A stretch of 12,254 nt of DNA from Candidatus Hermodarchaeota archaeon (GTDB lineage Archaea > Asgardarchaeota > Hermodarchaeia > Hermodarchaeales > Hermodarchaeaceae): contig JAEOTB010000113.1 of assembly GCA_016840065.1 (NCBI GenBank), positions 1 through 12,254 on the forward strand, written 5' to 3'. The notes beneath the pieces were generated by a model. It ran no database searches and had not been told where the DNA came from. It saw only the letters and a list, made by a program, of their open reading frames with translations. Shown here piece after piece: positions 2,359 through 10,309 of the stretch. Positions within the stretch are counted from its first letter, which is position 1. Each line of letters opens with the position of its first letter. Position numbers and translations under genes: made by a program.

Positions 2359-3057
2359 CTAAGAGAATATAGTGGATGCCTTTGGTTGTGGAGAATAGAA
2401 AGGTCCATGGAAAGGTAGTGGTATTTCTATGAATGCTTCAGCGAATTCGCAACCAGCTTGCAACCCACGTAGTCTTGCCTTTTGAAGATTGAAGGAATGA
2501 TAGTAACCCTCTGTTTTCTCCATCTGGCTTCTAAACGATATTATCGCCTGTCTTTTCAAATCAACAACTTCGGAAATGTCTACAAATAGGGTGGGTGCTG
2601 GAAAGAGATTGTTTATCTCCATACAAAGAAGGCGGCGAAATCGCCACGCTTTATCGCGTTTAAGAGTTGAGTGACCTGCCCATTCAGCTGCTCGTAAAAC
2701 TGCCTTATGTACAATTATGTGATCTGGGTGATAATCAAGGGAACTGTGGGTGATAATGGTATCTGGCTTAATCTTCCTAATGAGCGGAACGAGCTTGTCA
2801 GAAGTTTCACGAACACTTAGAGAGAAATCCGCTCCTACCTCAGCAACAACCTTAGCACCAAGGATTTTACATGCTGCGCGTAGCTCCTTGTGGCGTGCTG
2901 GTGTACCAGTAAGGCAGCACACAGTAACCTCAGCATCACGGCTAACCTCCAATGCTATTGTGCCCCCGCACCCAAATGTCTCATCATCTGCATGAGCGCC
3001 TACAACAAGGAGTCTTTTTGATTTGGAAGAAATGGAGGTTCTTGTATCTTTAGGCAT
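2359..3057 (-). CDS. bshB: PIG-L/LmbE-family N-acetylglucosaminyl deacetylase, probable GlcNAc-malate deacetylase BshB
   Basis: Zn motif GAHADDETFGCGGT, HPDH, C-terminal RG..AG..FAEAF, and adjacency to bshA/bshC. ATG at 3057 is preferred over the TTG at 3084 used by the ORF track. Confidence 0.8.
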   Translation of the reverse strand: MPKDTRTSISSKSKRLLVVGAHADDETFGCGGTIALEVSRDAEVTVCCLTGTPARHKELRAACKILGAKVVAEVGADFSLSVRETSDKLVPLIRKIKPDTIITHSSLDYHPDHIIVHKAVLRAAEWAGHSTLKRDKAWRFRRLLCMEINNLFPAPTLFVDISEVVDLKRQAIISFRSQMEKTEGYYHSFNLQKARLRGLQAGCEFAEAFIEIPLPFHGPFYSPQPKASTIFS

Positions 3058-3170
3058 ATTCAAAGATTGGTGGGCTATCGTCAAAAGCCTTCGTTTTCTA
3101 CCAGTTTCTTTTCCGTAAGCGTTCTAGTACCTGAAGGATAAAAGATAAGGGCAGTGCTGAGCTTGAGCGC

Positions 3171-4289
3171 ATGGGATTCTCGATGCGAATTGGGATAACT
3201 TGCTACCCTAGTATCGGTGGGTCAGGATTACTAGCGACCAGGTTAGCTATCGAGCTGGCAAAAAGGGGCCACGAACTTCATATGATTACGTATGAAGTTC
3301 CCTTCCTCCTGCAGGAAGGTCGTCATGATAACATCACAGTCAATCTTGTCGATGTGTTAAGCTATCCTCTCTTCAGGTTCCCACCCTATACCGTTGCCTT
3401 GGCTTCTCAAATGGCTAGTGTGATTAAGAAACACAAGTTAGATTTGATTCACGCACACTATGCTATTCCTCATGCAGTTTCTGCGTATCTCGCTCACGAA
3501 ATGACTGGTATTCCCTATGTTGTTACGCTTCACGGTTCTGATGTTCACACGCTTGGAGCTGACCCTGCATACCAACCCGCCACTCGTTTCGCTGTAGAAG
3601 CTGCTGATGCAGTAACATGTGTAACAAAACACATCTGCCAGACAGCAGAGCAGACATTAGGTGTTCGCTGCAAAATCAACCCGATAACTAACTTTACTGA
3701 TCCTGACCAATTCAAGCCTGGACCCTGCATTCATCGATGTGAAGAGCATCAGAAAGAACTGGTTCACGTTTCCAACTTCAGACCAGTAAAACGTGTCCCT
3801 GATCTTGTTACTGCCTTCGCCCAAATTTCGTCAGAAGTGCCTGATGCTACTCTTCTGCTTCTTGGTGATGGTCCAGAGCGACCTACTGTAGAGCGCCTAA
3901 TCCGGGAATTTAATCTAGGTGACAGAGTGAGGTGTCCTGGATTCAAGCGAGATGTATACACCTATTTACGATGCGCTCACGCTTTCGTGCTTTGTTCCGA
4001 ACTGGAGGGGGCTCCCCTCTCGATTCTCGAAGCGATGAGTAGCGGTCTACCAGTAGTTGCGACAGAAGTTGGAGGGATACCTGAACTCATCACTGATGGA
4101 AAGAATGGTTTATTGGTCCCATTTGGGGATATCGATGCTTTAGCAAACAAGCTCTACGCTGTACTTACTGACGATGTTCTTGCTCAAAGCCTGGGCGAAC
4201 AAGCCAGAAAGAGTATTCTCGCTAACCACACAGCTGAACAAGTGATTCCGAGATACGAAGAAGTCTACGAGACTATTATTAGTCGTTAA
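3171..4289 (+). CDS. bshA: N-acetyl-alpha-D-glucosaminyl L-malate synthase BshA (GT4 glycosyltransferase)
   Basis: BshA-type motifs IGITCYPSIGGSG, YPLFRFPPY, HAHYAIPHA, TLHGSDV, HVSNFRPVKRV, plus the GT4 E-x7-E motif (EGAPLSILE). Alternative ATG at 3183. Confidence 0.92.
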   Translation: MGFSMRIGITCYPSIGGSGLLATRLAIELAKRGHELHMITYEVPFLLQEGRHDNITVNLVDVLSYPLFRFPPYTVALASQMASVIKKHKLDLIHAHYAIPHAVSAYLAHEMTGIPYVVTLHGSDVHTLGADPAYQPATRFAVEAADAVTCVTKHICQTAEQTLGVRCKINPITNFTDPDQFKPGPCIHRCEEHQKELVHVSNFRPVKRVPDLVTAFAQISSEVPDATLLLLGDGPERPTVERLIREFNLGDRVRCPGFKRDVYTYLRCAHAFVLCSELEGAPLSILEAMSSGLPVVATEVGGIPELITDGKNGLLVPFGDIDALANKLYAVLTDDVLAQSLGEQARKSILANHTAEQVIPRYEEVYETIISR

Positions 4290-4297
4290 CATGACTT

Positions 4298-6082
4298 TTA
4301 CGCTATCTCATCGCTGATGTAAAAGGTGGCAGCGGCTGGAGTGAAGGGTTGGTAATGGGTGCTTAGCTTTGAGAACAGCGTGTCAAGTCCTATAGACAAA
4401 GCCATGTCGATCCAAGCGAAGCTAACTTCCTGCGCGTAGCGCTCTTGTGAATATCGCCCGTACATCTGGGATAGGTAAGTTTGAAGTAGTTGACGTCGTT
4501 TTGTCAGCAAGCCAATTCTTTCTTGGAGTTGACGACGATGAGTCGAATCAGTTACTTCTCGCTGTTCTGCAACCATAGTTGACCTCTCTTTGTCTAATTG
4601 AGTCTCTGCTTTTAATAGATGCTCGTATGTTTCTCTGATGTATTCGCTACAGGCGGCAAAGAGGGAACGTACAACTCCTGCGTTCTTCTCACGCCCATTT
4701 GTTTCGACTGCTGATAGGTAAGTCCACAGCTTCACTGGTAGAAGGGGTTGTAGTTTCTCCTTCTGGAGCTTGTCAGCTAATCTTCTAGTCCAAGGATTGC
4801 CATAGAAGAGGCGAGTATATCGGAAGAAGATTGGGGCTACACACTTTACTGCGGCAAGGGCAGGAGAGACCTGTGCATGATAGCTTGTCTCCCCAGCTCC
4901 TCCTATGTGTAAAGTGACTGGTGTAAAAGTTTGAACTAGGAAAGCACGTGTATCAACTCTAGGAGAGAGATGTTCTTTCCAAGGGCTAAGATCTGGGTTC
5001 CTTTCTGAAACTTCAAGAATATGGTCTTCTTTGCATTTTGGACAGGTAGCAGTTAGTTGGATTGTGTTTGTGCTTGGTCGCACATTTAGCATAGGCTCTG
5101 TCCTTGTACGTTGGCACCCTTTTGTCGGGCATTCTAGAAGGAAGGGAACATAATTGTCTTGTCGGTGACCTATTCCTGGTTGGTACCCAAGACTTCGAAG
5201 CTGCTCAGCGGATTGGTTGAGGGCCTTAGTGAAGCGTAGTCGGTTAGGTTCTTTCAATAAATATTCAAAGGCTGGCAACATCAAATCACGGATTATAGGC
5301 TGAGAGAATGCTTGGAAGAGGATACCACTACCTTCATCTAGGTTGGTCATGTGCATCCATATGCGAAGGGTCCAGTCTGCTAGATTTGATGCTTGAGTAA
5401 ATGTCTGCGAGAGAAGATTAACGATGGACATCACATTTTGAGCGTATGACATACGATCTTGTTTTGGTTGAGAAGCAACAAGTTCATGATAGGTTGACTC
5501 AATTCTCTTACAGACTTGCTCTAGCCATTTCTTAGGGGGTAGGGGTAAGATGTGGAGAGGGGAGTTCCTATACTCGCGTGGAACTTGGAGTGAAAATGTT
5601 AGCCCCTTGGGTCCTGGACTAGGAAGGTGAACTACGGTAAGTTCTTTCTGTTCATGGTCATGATCTCCAACAAACATTACTGGTATTGCATTTTGAAATG
5701 AAGCGAGACGGCTTATGGCTGCCATTTTATTAATTACAAAACCTGGGCCACCAAGCACAGCTGGTTGGTGTCCCGCCTCTACAACCGATAGACTTTGTGT
5801 CAGTTGGTTCAGCATTTCTTTTACTTTGCTGGTCATCATTCGATGTTCTCTATGAAGGGTTGTTATTGCTTGAAGCAGTTTTTCTACGCGGTCTTCTGAG
5901 AAGAGTGGTGTGTCGCCTTTCGAATATGAATGAGAAATTGGTTGGCTGAATTGAACTGCTTCTGCTGCTGTTCGAGGTATTGGTCCCCAGAATTGATGTT
6001 CTACGGTCTCCTGGTCAAAAACATAAGCAGTGTAGAGATTGTTTGCGTCAGGTAAAATGGAGGTACCCCGGGACGGTTTCAT
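4298..6082 (-). CDS. bshC: Bacillithiol cysteine-adding enzyme BshC, divergent, with Cys4 insertion
   Basis: AGHQPAVLGGP..INK (cf. BshC GQQAGL.TGP), IPVMFVGDHDHE (cf. P.FW.AGEDHD), LSPRVDTRA (cf. SPNV.LRP), IGGAGETSYHAQ (cf. GGPGE.AY.AQ), a long C-terminal coiled-coil and QER. Lies next to bshA. Confidence 0.82.
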   Translation of the reverse strand: MKPSRGTSILPDANNLYTAYVFDQETVEHQFWGPIPRTAAEAVQFSQPISHSYSKGDTPLFSEDRVEKLLQAITTLHREHRMMTSKVKEMLNQLTQSLSVVEAGHQPAVLGGPGFVINKMAAISRLASFQNAIPVMFVGDHDHEQKELTVVHLPSPGPKGLTFSLQVPREYRNSPLHILPLPPKKWLEQVCKRIESTYHELVASQPKQDRMSYAQNVMSIVNLLSQTFTQASNLADWTLRIWMHMTNLDEGSGILFQAFSQPIIRDLMLPAFEYLLKEPNRLRFTKALNQSAEQLRSLGYQPGIGHRQDNYVPFLLECPTKGCQRTRTEPMLNVRPSTNTIQLTATCPKCKEDHILEVSERNPDLSPWKEHLSPRVDTRAFLVQTFTPVTLHIGGAGETSYHAQVSPALAAVKCVAPIFFRYTRLFYGNPWTRRLADKLQKEKLQPLLPVKLWTYLSAVETNGREKNAGVVRSLFAACSEYIRETYEHLLKAETQLDKERSTMVAEQREVTDSTHRRQLQERIGLLTKRRQLLQTYLSQMYGRYSQERYAQEVSFAWIDMALSIGLDTLFSKLSTHYQPFTPAAATFYISDEIA

Positions 6083-7308
6083 GACGAATTTTCCTCCTCT
6101 GTCGGCTGCCTACGCATTCCTATTCCCACTAGACAACTGAGGATCGAGACTGTAGCTATGAGAGCAATAAGTGTAAGGGTGTTCGCTGAGAAGTAGAGAG
6201 TGTCTAGAATGGGAATTGACCCCCCAAACTCCCATAATTCATATTCCATTCTTTGAAGGCTATGATTGACTAAATCCGATTGTGCGGTTCGTCTTTCACC
6301 GATATAGTCAGATCCATTACAAACCCAAAGCGTGACAACTGGTACATTCCGAACGTAGAGTGAATTATACACGGCACTTGACGGGTCTGAAGCAATATAG
6401 CCCGTAAGGAGGTCAAAAGGAAGCCAGCCCCAAGGCGGCACATAGGCCATGACCCAAGCATGACCCACACCATTTCGCCAGTCAACATAGAGATAAGCCT
6501 CTTCTGCAATAGAACCCCAGAGAAAGCCTGTTGTAATCGCGCCTTCCTGATACCAGTGTCCGGTCATTAAATAACAGGGAATACCAAAAAGTCGAAGAAG
6601 TACAATAAGTAGATTTGATTTATCGTCGCAGTCTCCTATTTGACTATTCACTAATTCCTCAGGATATTGGGGCTCAGTTAACGTAATAGGATTGTGAATG
6701 TGAGTATCAATCCAGGACATAGCTGCATAAATCAAAGCTAGTGTTTTCTCTTGTTCATCCTCCGCTAATTCACTCTGAATTGAAGACGCCAAGTCTATGA
6801 GAGTACCGTTATCGGTTTTCCAAAGACTAGTAGCCTGAGTATACCAGTAATACTCCTCCGCATCCATCAAGCTAGAAATATCAGTTACATTTCCTGATTG
6901 TTCTGTGTCTATCTGAGGTGGATTGAATCTATGATCTAACACCTCAAATGACCATTCTTCCTCCCAAAACAGAATATCACCTGGTTGAAATGGCGTAGTT
7001 AAATTAGATTCCTGCAGATGATTTCCATCGATATCAGTTGTTAATCTGGTTATTTGTATACTATCATTGTTTAATGTGATATTCTGGCTAATTTGTTTAC
7101 AAACTTGGGAACTTGAGTTACTGTAATAGTCCCAGAAACGATAAGGTTCAGAAGAATAAGAGGAATTACCTGAAACAATTAAGGCACCTGAGACACTGAA
7201 ATTCCAAAAATGGACATAGCGAAAGCCCTGAACAGATGGAGGTGGTGAGCATAGTAGGGCGAAAAGAATGATACCCATTAGAACTGTTACATATCTAGGT
7301 TTTCGCAT
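6079..7308 (-). CDS. Secreted, C-terminally membrane-anchored transglutaminase-like (Cys-His-Asp) protein
   Basis: GDCDDKSNLL..LLRLFGIP and GHAWV..Y....GWLPFD motifs, an N-terminal signal peptide, a C-terminal TM helix followed by RR, and about 10 N-x-S/T sequons. The stop overlaps the bshC start (ATGA, 6079-6082). Confidence 0.88.
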   Translation of the reverse strand: MRKPRYVTVLMGIILFALLCSPPPSVQGFRYVHFWNFSVSGALIVSGNSSYSSEPYRFWDYYSNSSSQVCKQISQNITLNNDSIQITRLTTDIDGNHLQESNLTTPFQPGDILFWEEEWSFEVLDHRFNPPQIDTEQSGNVTDISSLMDAEEYYWYTQATSLWKTDNGTLIDLASSIQSELAEDEQEKTLALIYAAMSWIDTHIHNPITLTEPQYPEELVNSQIGDCDDKSNLLIVLLRLFGIPCYLMTGHWYQEGAITTGFLWGSIAEEAYLYVDWRNGVGHAWVMAYVPPWGWLPFDLLTGYIASDPSSAVYNSLYVRNVPVVTLWVCNGSDYIGERRTAQSDLVNHSLQRMEYELWEFGGSIPILDTLYFSANTLTLIALIATVSILSCLVGIGMRRQPTEEENSS

Positions 7309-7446: not shown

Positions 7447-7460
7447 CCAGTGTTTTTTAA
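7447..7460 (+). promoter_or_regulatory. Putative TATA-box region for the E2F-like gene
   Basis: CCAGTGTTTTTTAA, similar to CCAGTATTTTTAA at 8541-8553 and to TATTTTTAAG at 9686-9695. Confidence 0.4.
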
Positions 7461-7602
7461 CGAACGCAGATAATACAGTATCTTAGAGTCGTTTGGCACT
7501 AGGGTCCGGCTTGGAGATTGAGCCGTAACCCTTTTATCCACATTGTGCTAGGCGGGTTGACAATATCCCTAACGCACTAGATTGTTTAAAGAGGAAATCT
7601 GA

Positions 7603-8082
7603 ATGAAGCTTGGTGAAGTCTCAAAGATGGTGGTCGACTTCTTGCGCAGTAGTCCTAGCAAGGAATTTACTGCTAATACTGTTCTCCTGCATTTAGGTTT
7701 GCCACCAGAACAGAAACGACGGGTTTATGATGTTATCGAAGTATTGGCATGTGCTGGGCAGATAACAGTCCGTAAAGAGGGAAGAAAACGACACTTCCAA
7801 TGGATTGCTACACCAGCTCCTGAACCTGTGGAGTCGGTGGAGCTCGATCTCCCCGAGAATTCTCCATTCAGTGAGGCAGGGACAGTTCTTCATGTACTGC
7901 TTCATTTCAATGCTCGTGCATTCCAAGAACTCTCGAATGAAGCTACGATGGGAATGCTTGAAAGAGATATAAAACGTGCGGTCTTGGGGGCAAACGCAGT
8001 CAGTATAACCCGAATTACACTCCAGAATAGTCAAGGGCGTATTTTGAAACAATCTCCGAGTGCTCTTCCTGCTGCTGTGTGA
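7603..8082 (+). CDS. Winged-helix DNA-binding protein of E2F/DP type with an uncharacterised C-terminal domain
   Basis: Residues 1-69 read KLGEVSKMVVDFL...QKRRVYDVIEVL..AGQI..RKEGRKRHFQWIA, matching the E2F/DP pattern SLG.L...F...L...QKRR.YD..NVL...G.I......[FI].W.G. SD-like GAGG at 7591-7594. Confidence 0.75.
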   Translation: MKLGEVSKMVVDFLRSSPSKEFTANTVLLHLGLPPEQKRRVYDVIEVLACAGQITVRKEGRKRHFQWIATPAPEPVESVELDLPENSPFSEAGTVLHVLLHFNARAFQELSNEATMGMLERDIKRAVLGANAVSITRITLQNSQGRILKQSPSALPAAV

Positions 8083-8112: not shown

Positions 8113-8505
8113 CTAGCCTTGTTCTTCTAAATCCTTTCTAACCGATTCATAGAAGCTGATAGCTTCTTCACCACGACGTTTAACCATTATCTTAGGTTCA
8201 ACACCTTCGAGCCGTCGCTGTACCTGAAGAACTCCAATCTTTGGTATTTTTCTGACAAGTTGTCGTCGAAGAAAGAGGGTAATGGCAATATCCTCTATCC
8301 GTGCAGCAAGGTGGGGTTTAGTTTGCCTTAGCTCAACAAGATAAGAGACAGCATCAGGCATGAAAATTTCTTGGATAAGTCGTTGCCGCTTCTGCTGCTG
8401 TTCCTCTTCTATTTCTCTAACCGCTTCCTGCTGCTTCTTCTCCTTAAGGATGGCCTGCAGTTTTCGTCTTCGAATAATCGACAGTTCATCAGATTCCTTG
8501 GACAT
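8113..8505 (-). CDS. PDCD5 / TFAR19-family DNA-binding protein (divergent)
   Basis: ELSIIRRRKLQ, an E/Q-rich helix, IFMPDA..YL..LRQTKP.LA..IE, RKI and a basic KI.VKRR tail, collinear with the archaeal PDCD5 family. Confidence 0.75.
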   Translation of the reverse strand: MSKESDELSIIRRRKLQAILKEKKQQEAVREIEEEQQQKRQRLIQEIFMPDAVSYLVELRQTKPHLAARIEDIAITLFLRRQLVRKIPKIGVLQVQRRLEGVEPKIMVKRRGEEAISFYESVRKDLEEQG

Positions 8506-10154: not shown

Positions 10155-10217
10155 TAGCCAGTGGTTGCAAACGCCATCAGTACTCGAATATTGCAGCCTC
10201 TTCGAAAACCCTACCGC

Positions 10218-10263
10218 GGGAGAACGTTCTGCTGTTTTTTGCAGTGGTTCTCCCTCCCTTTTT
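10218..10263 (+). terminator. Hairpin plus pyrimidine tract between convergent alba and amidohydrolase genes
   Basis: GGGAGAAC (10218-10225) pairs with GTTCTCCC (10247-10254), with inner CTGC/GCAG and a T-rich loop, followed by TCCCTTTTT. Confidence 0.55.
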
Positions 10264-10309
10264 CTCTCCCGATTCTAGTAGACTTCGTTTCTCGTATTAT
10301 GTATTAGGG

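Follow-up and report, generated by a model that had tools for sequence, protein, structure and literature searches.

The stretch of DNA analysed here, the whole of which is called the window below (12,254 nt, a contig of a Candidatus Hermodarchaeota genome), carries a gene for a small DNA-binding protein that is very probably a genuine Hermodarchaeota (Asgard) member of the E2F/DP winged-helix family. The protein is most likely a transcription factor and is predicted to be paired through its tail. E2F/DP is among the eukaryotic signature proteins through which Asgard archaea are linked to how the cell cycle of eukaryotes arose. According to the open reading frame list and the translation, the gene (P0001) lies at 7603-8082 on the plus strand, stop codon included, and encodes 159 amino acids. 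The initial annotation had given the range 7603-7809, which does cover the winged-helix domain, but the full reading frame runs to 8082. The N-terminal E2F_TDP DNA-binding domain (residues 1-69; 7603-7809, plus strand) was delimited with Pfam PF02319 and an AF2 model. It is followed by a variable, probably disordered linker (residues 72-84; 7816-7854, plus strand) with pLDDT values below 50 and poorly conserved alignment columns, and then by a conserved C-terminal alpha/beta module (residues 85-152; 7855-8058, plus strand) that belongs to no known family and for which self-pairing is predicted.

The winged-helix fold is present in the AF2 model, with three helices (residues 3-16, 24-31 and 35-50) followed by a beta-hairpin wing (strands 54-59 and 62-67), all at pLDDT 81-91. 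The recognition-helix motif QKRRVYDVIEVL, which holds the RRxYD signature, corresponds to residues 37-48 (7711-7746, plus strand) and is preceded by KLGEVSKMVVDFL and followed by RKEGRKRHFQWIA; motif and flanks were read from the translation and agree with the initial annotation. In eukaryotic E2F and DP, RRxYD reads the GC-rich core of the site. Twenty orthologues were collected, 53-92% identical and all beginning with MKL, and RRxYD is kept in all 21 sequences, a lack of such conservation being one of the outcomes that the initial annotation had named as a refutation. Residues K38, R39, R40, Y42 and D43 are invariant in 21/21 sequences, and W67 in the wing and E46 are nearly so. The replacement of the conserved Asn by Glu was also seen: where eukaryotic E2F and DP have Asn in the recognition helix (E2F4, QKRRIYDITNVL), the protein here has Glu46, a position occupied by Glu in 20 of the 21 aligned orthologues and by Asp in the remaining one. 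As had been described, the gene is intronless and is led by a Shine-Dalgarno-like sequence, and a TGA stop stands immediately 5' of its ATG.

Membership in E2F/DP rests on sequence and not on fold, because small winged helices are poorly separated by fold comparison. In Pfam, E2F_TDP matched at 38.3 bits (E = 1.1e-9), with residues 3-68 aligned to profile positions 5-64 of 65; the curated cut-off of PF02319 is 25.7 bits, and in a genome-wide search the score was 39.7 bits. Judged by its profile score, this match is far above chance. With the whole protein as query, no Pfam family besides E2F_TDP was found at E ≤ 10, so no ArsR, TrmB or MarR, and a search of NCBIfam gave no match. A profile built from 21 orthologues was also compared with 177,635 distinct PDB sequences. 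It matched only E2F8 (4yo2, E = 8.8e-4, with both DNA-binding domains aligned) and E2F4 (1cf7, E = 4.6e-3), at modest scores, and the DP2 chain gave no match at E ≤ 1; the single sequence reached E2F4 at only E = 1.1. The contest between E2F_TDP and generic winged helix-turn-helix profiles that the initial annotation had proposed was thus decided for E2F_TDP, the sole match and above its cut-off, with the reciprocal profile returning E2F8 and E2F4.

As had been guessed, the host belongs to the Asgard archaea (Hermodarchaeota), and the relatives come from Hermodarchaeota or Promethearchaeota MAGs. The closest relatives are 84-92% identical, the nearest genome matches have 85-86% identity, and the window is present in three marine-sediment DNA runs of one study and is listed for no RNA run. 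The genome (2.59 Mb in 131 contigs, 83.9% complete) has a single E2F_TDP gene. The domain was found in 139/400 genomes of the phylum (136 above the cut-off), in 16 of 18 other genomes of the host's own family and in none of 14 control genomes; several large families of the phylum also gave none. Its occurrence in 139 genomes over many families fits an old presence with losses, as is concluded in the literature.

Two explanations would take the gene out of the E2F/DP lineage or make it uninformative on E2F/DP ancestry. The protein could belong to the common archaeal winged-helix regulators (ArsR, TrmB, MarR or Fur-like) and have become E2F-like by convergence on an RRxYD-like helix, and the fold searches would fit this. 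With the whole model, Foldseek against the PDB was led by SqrR, HlyU and ArsR at E of about 1e-2, and VIA-align by Hop2, Z-alpha and Fur/PerR at Z 10-12; E2F/DP entries were absent among the best 50 matches listed by each. We consider this explanation highly improbable, since fold comparison discriminates small winged helices badly, whereas E2F_TDP is matched end to end with no other helix-turn-helix family beside it, the orthologue profile leads back only to E2F8 and E2F4, and the motif is invariant over sequences of 53-92% identity. The gene could also have been transferred from a eukaryote, possibly via a virus, or could represent eukaryotic contamination of the bin, and its patchy spread, with several large families lacking matches, would be in line with transfer. 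However, the order BshC-like, transglutaminase-like, E2F, PDCD5-like, M28 peptidase, Alba, amidohydrolase is repeated on independent contigs from different samples (NCBI MAGs and JGI, ENA and Logan assemblies), and GC content is even across the window (0.42-0.50). Because the gene order recurs on independent contigs and GC is even, chimerism is excluded, and so is eukaryotic contamination, which the initial annotation had considered unlikely. A Shine-Dalgarno sequence without introns and the many families that carry the domain further argue against transfer, to which we give very little weight. This leaves a native Asgard E2F/DP protein as the preferred reading.

Such homologues have already been reported, a point on which the initial annotation could not decide, and the gene is a further Hermodarchaeota member of a published family. 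Asgard E2F/DP proteins were described by Eme et al. (2023, Nature 618:992, Suppl. 4.1.5; PMC10307638), with homologues in most Asgard groups and none in other archaea. These authors found the DNA-binding domain to be highly conserved, including the base-contacting residues, with homology confined to that domain, and described the Asgard proteins as lacking regulator-binding and dimerisation domains (PMC10307638). Their table of eukaryotic signature proteins has the entry 'E2F/DP PF02319' (arCOG02749), which includes Hermodarchaeia_WORB2_22320 (PMC10307638). A review of the archaeal cell cycle from 2024 mentions Asgard E2F (PMC7617429). Our literature search found no experimental study of archaeal E2F and no paper that names both E2F and Hermodarchaeota.

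The protein shares with the published group its Asgard origin, the PF02319 domain and the build of a small single domain plus tail, and has an orthologue in the list of Eme et al. This orthologue, WORB2_22320, is of the same family and archaeal class and has the same two-part architecture. It reads almost like P0008 and P0010, which over the full length are 57% and 56% identical to the protein here, and, like the protein here, it has an RRxYD helix in which Glu takes the place of Asn, and a C-terminal module with MLERDIKR. The protein here differs in coming from another genus-level lineage. Whereas the published description finds homology only in the DNA-binding domain, the C-terminal half here is conserved, confined to two families and predicted to pair with itself. 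The novelty is therefore modest: a lineage-restricted C-terminal module and, from the model, a predicted pairing of two copies. The predicted self-pairing would disagree with the published description of Asgard E2F/DP as being without a dimerisation domain.

In the 21-sequence alignment, residues of about 85-152 are conserved as strongly as the winged helix. F89, G93, T94, A106, F107, Q108, S111, M118, E120, R121, D122, K124, R125, L140 and G145 are invariant, and the module is modelled at moderate confidence (pLDDT 63-74; 72.7 in a second model). Searches of Pfam, the PDB and the ESM atlas for relatives of the module found none. With the whole protein as query, no Pfam family covered the module, nothing meaningful came from Pfam when the C-terminal parts of the 21 orthologues were used, and the module profile found nothing below E = 0.08 among PDB sequences. 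On the structural side, no fold relative emerged, the best match in VIA-align reaching Z 3.4 (48,161 chains), while in the ESM atlas the shape search stayed at TM ≤ 0.45 and the feature search gave no usable match. Among 1.84 billion representative proteins the profile retrieved only the group's own representative. A match to P0024, a protein of 4,276 amino acids, involved a short repeated stretch and was taken as spurious.

Beyond the host's own family, 29 E2F loci of other Asgard families were compared, and the module was present in only one of these families (f26; hmmsearch E of about 3e-5; hhalign probability 92%); at the other loci the match was limited to the winged helix. The f26 relatives P0022 and P0023 also carry the RRxYD motif. 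Genomes of f26 are small (1.4-2.0 Mb) and have two E2F_TDP genes each. One copy is Hermodarchaeota-like, having this C-module and Asp at the Asn position (L031:1495-1950 in genome G299; L038:1465-1950 in G297), and at L038 a PDCD5-like gene adjoins the E2F gene.

A homodimer had been inferred in the initial annotation, and a controlled two-copy model lends this some support. The predicted complex reached ipSAE 0.52 in 3/3 runs, where the best of three controls scored 0.00, with contacts agreeing to at least 93% between runs and a partner pLDDT of at least 70. The mark applied was reached by 20/30 solved homo-pairs and by 1/23 single chains, counts that are rough since an alignment made for this analysis was used. 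Confident contacts were mainly found within residues 89-145, and also at residues 3-11 in helix 1 and 43-53, where the recognition helix ends (E46 included). Residues 95-102 of one chain contact residues 95-102 and 132-138 of the other, suggesting that the chains share a sheet. To our knowledge, all E2F/DP proteins use paired winged helices. With one E2F_TDP copy in the genome, there is no paralogue to serve as a DP-like partner, and a homodimer is thus the simplest route to paired winged helices. On the basis of the model, we slightly favour the view that the protein forms a homodimer.

Comparison with the eukaryotic proteins shows which parts are shared. E2F1-6 and DP1/2 (1CF7) have the same E2F_TDP winged helix, whose recognition helix carries RRxYD, and as in E2F-DP two winged helices are probably used together, with domain-domain contacts in the model made through helices 1 and 3. 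Helices 1 and 3 reportedly also form the E2F-DP interface in the E2F4-DP2 structure (1CF7). On the other hand, the protein here has no coiled-coil/marked-box (PF16421) and no DP C-terminal domain (PF08781) in Pfam at E ≤ 10, and no homology between the C-module and a eukaryotic dimerisation domain was found by Pfam, PDB sequence or fold searches. It ends at residue 159 after the C-module, without the transactivation or pocket-protein (Rb) binding segment of a typical E2F tail, and the absence of a regulator-binding part agrees with Eme et al. (2023; PMC10307638). E2F-DP is a heterodimer of paralogues, whereas a homodimer of one gene product is predicted here. E2F7/E2F8 (4YO2), which the orthologue profile matched best among PDB sequences, likewise needs no DP partner, as predicted for the protein here. 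However, in E2F7/8 a single chain carries a tandem of two winged helices, while the protein here has one and would pair through an unrelated C-module.

The hypothesis we offer is that the tail of residues ~85-152 is a self-pairing domain and that the ancestral E2F-DP was a homodimer on a GC-rich site. The recognition helix with RRxYD would read the DNA site, the disordered linker would join the winged helix to the C-module, and the C-module would hold two identical chains together and thereby present their winged helices as a pair in which helices 1 and 3 also touch. In its full form, with an obligate homodimer formed through an undescribed, lineage-restricted C-module, helix 1 and helix 3 surfaces used as in E2F-DP, a pairing that predates eukaryotes and a heterodimer that arose from the homodimer by duplication, the hypothesis is tentative and we would not expect all of it to hold. 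If true, paired E2F-type DNA recognition would be older than eukaryotes, and duplication would have turned a homodimer into the E2F-DP heterodimer.

The region upstream of the gene was compared with that of its closest relatives. The Shine-Dalgarno-like AAGAGGA (7589-7595, plus strand) lies 7 nt 5' of the ATG, and the five closest relatives all keep AAGAGG unchanged. In the five-promoter alignment, a TATA-like TTTTTTAACG (7453-7462, plus strand) stands in a conserved block of GTAATACCA...TTTTAACG and is a candidate promoter; a similar TTTTTAAC occurs in more distant relatives. With TTTTTTAACG as the promoter, the leader would be about 125 nt long. Between this block and the gene, the conserved GGCGGGTTG (7551-7559, plus strand) holds GGCGGG, which is the core of the eukaryotic E2F site. 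The surrounding CAG(G/A)CGGG(T/A)TG is kept in 5/5 close relatives, with GGCGGG intact in 4/5. GGCGGG is not enriched in the window, and finding a given 6-mer in about 300 nt is within chance; because GGCGGG is not above chance there, GGCGGGTTG as an autoregulatory site is only a speculative suggestion. No inverted repeats or palindromes were found in the E2F gene promoter. GCACTAG repeats were considered as a regulatory motif and rejected: four occur in the window against 1.39 expected, 15/200 shuffles reach four, and the five closest relatives do not conserve the two copies that precede the E2F gene.

In distant Hermodarchaeota relatives (L010-L022; e.g., L011:3976-4003), the 25 nt before the ATG hold GGACTGGGCGAGGATATC, which is nearly invariant as DNA. 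Some gene calls extend the E2F reading frame into this stretch (GLGEDI...). In another frame it contains a short upstream reading frame (M/L-D-W-A-R-I-S-x-stop), the TGA of which overlaps the main ATG. The clade of the window is without the GGACTGGGCGAGGATATC stretch and has a TGA directly before the ATG instead.

Possible target sites were sought in the genome, and the searches point to no specific regulon. Its intergenic DNA shows no enrichment of TTTSSCGC, GGCGGGAA, GGCGGG or SGCGCS: 31/266 copies of TTTSSCGC are intergenic, compared with 12.8% of bases, and GGCGGG occurs 86 times, compared with 71-84 for words of the same composition. GGCGGGTTG has only two further copies in intergenic DNA, with no common theme, one between serpin and HEAT-repeat genes and the other probably inside a reading frame. 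No E2F-type word was found in the 400 nt upstream of orc1/cdc6 (C61:3493-4716, minus strand), and no FtsZ or tubulin gene was found in the 83.9%-complete assembly. We consider it possible, though somewhat less probable than the pairing itself, that the protein recognises an E2F-like GC-rich site. A link to replication or the cell cycle, drawn by analogy with the eukaryotic proteins, appears unlikely. Directly upstream of orc1/cdc6, on the same strand, lies a small zinc-ribbon reading frame (C61:4717-5100; CPEC...CQRC), which falls below the 80-aa cut-off of the genome ORF call.

The gene following E2F encodes a PDCD5-like dsDNA-binding protein (8113-8505, minus strand; PF01984, 26.3 bits) and is separated from it by 30 nt; Alba lies 1.7 kb away. 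This neighbourhood raises the question whether the protein is a sequence-unspecific or chromatin-associated DNA binder that acts together with the PDCD5-like protein and Alba. The order with PDCD5-like and Alba genes is kept in all Hermodarchaeota loci examined, in each of which the PDCD5-like gene adjoins E2F, and in one locus of another family; the lack of an enriched target word in the genome would also suit an unspecific binder. However, the conserved 12-kb gene order includes unrelated enzymes, a PDCD5-like gene lies within 1.5 kb of E2F in only 1/29 loci of other Asgard families, and the two genes are convergent. For these reasons the adjacency was attributed to synteny of the lineage, and the PDCD5-like neighbour was rejected as a functional partner; being convergent, the two genes do not form an operon. 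Furthermore, the invariant base-contacting RRxYD points to specific recognition. An unspecific binder is therefore improbable, and a site-specific E2F/DP-type protein is preferred.

Other features of the neighbourhood were noted as well. A PIG-L deacetylase is encoded at 2359-3084 (minus strand), a GT4 glycosyltransferase at 3171-4289 (plus strand) and a BshC-like protein at 4298-6082 (minus strand; PF10079, 74.8 bits). Together they make up a BshB/BshA/BshC-like trio, which resembles a thiol pathway of the bacillithiol type, here in a Hermodarchaeota genome. Relatives L002 and L004 keep the trio, and L006 shows part of it; sometimes a nitroreductase gene is inserted, and in L006 an inserted TnpB/Cas12f-like gene (L006:1524-2663; PF07282) lies next to the BshC-like gene. 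In relatives, Alba and amidohydrolase are separated by a PfkB-family kinase gene (L002:8958-9950), where the window has a 155-nt gap (10155-10309); the gene was lost, or never inserted, in the lineage of the window. At the start of the window, positions 3-1208 encode a bactofilin-repeat protein of 401 amino acids (PF04519). The transglutaminase-like protein upstream of E2F (6079-7308; 409 amino acids) has a signal or anchor segment, a C-terminal membrane helix and many N-x-S/T sequons.
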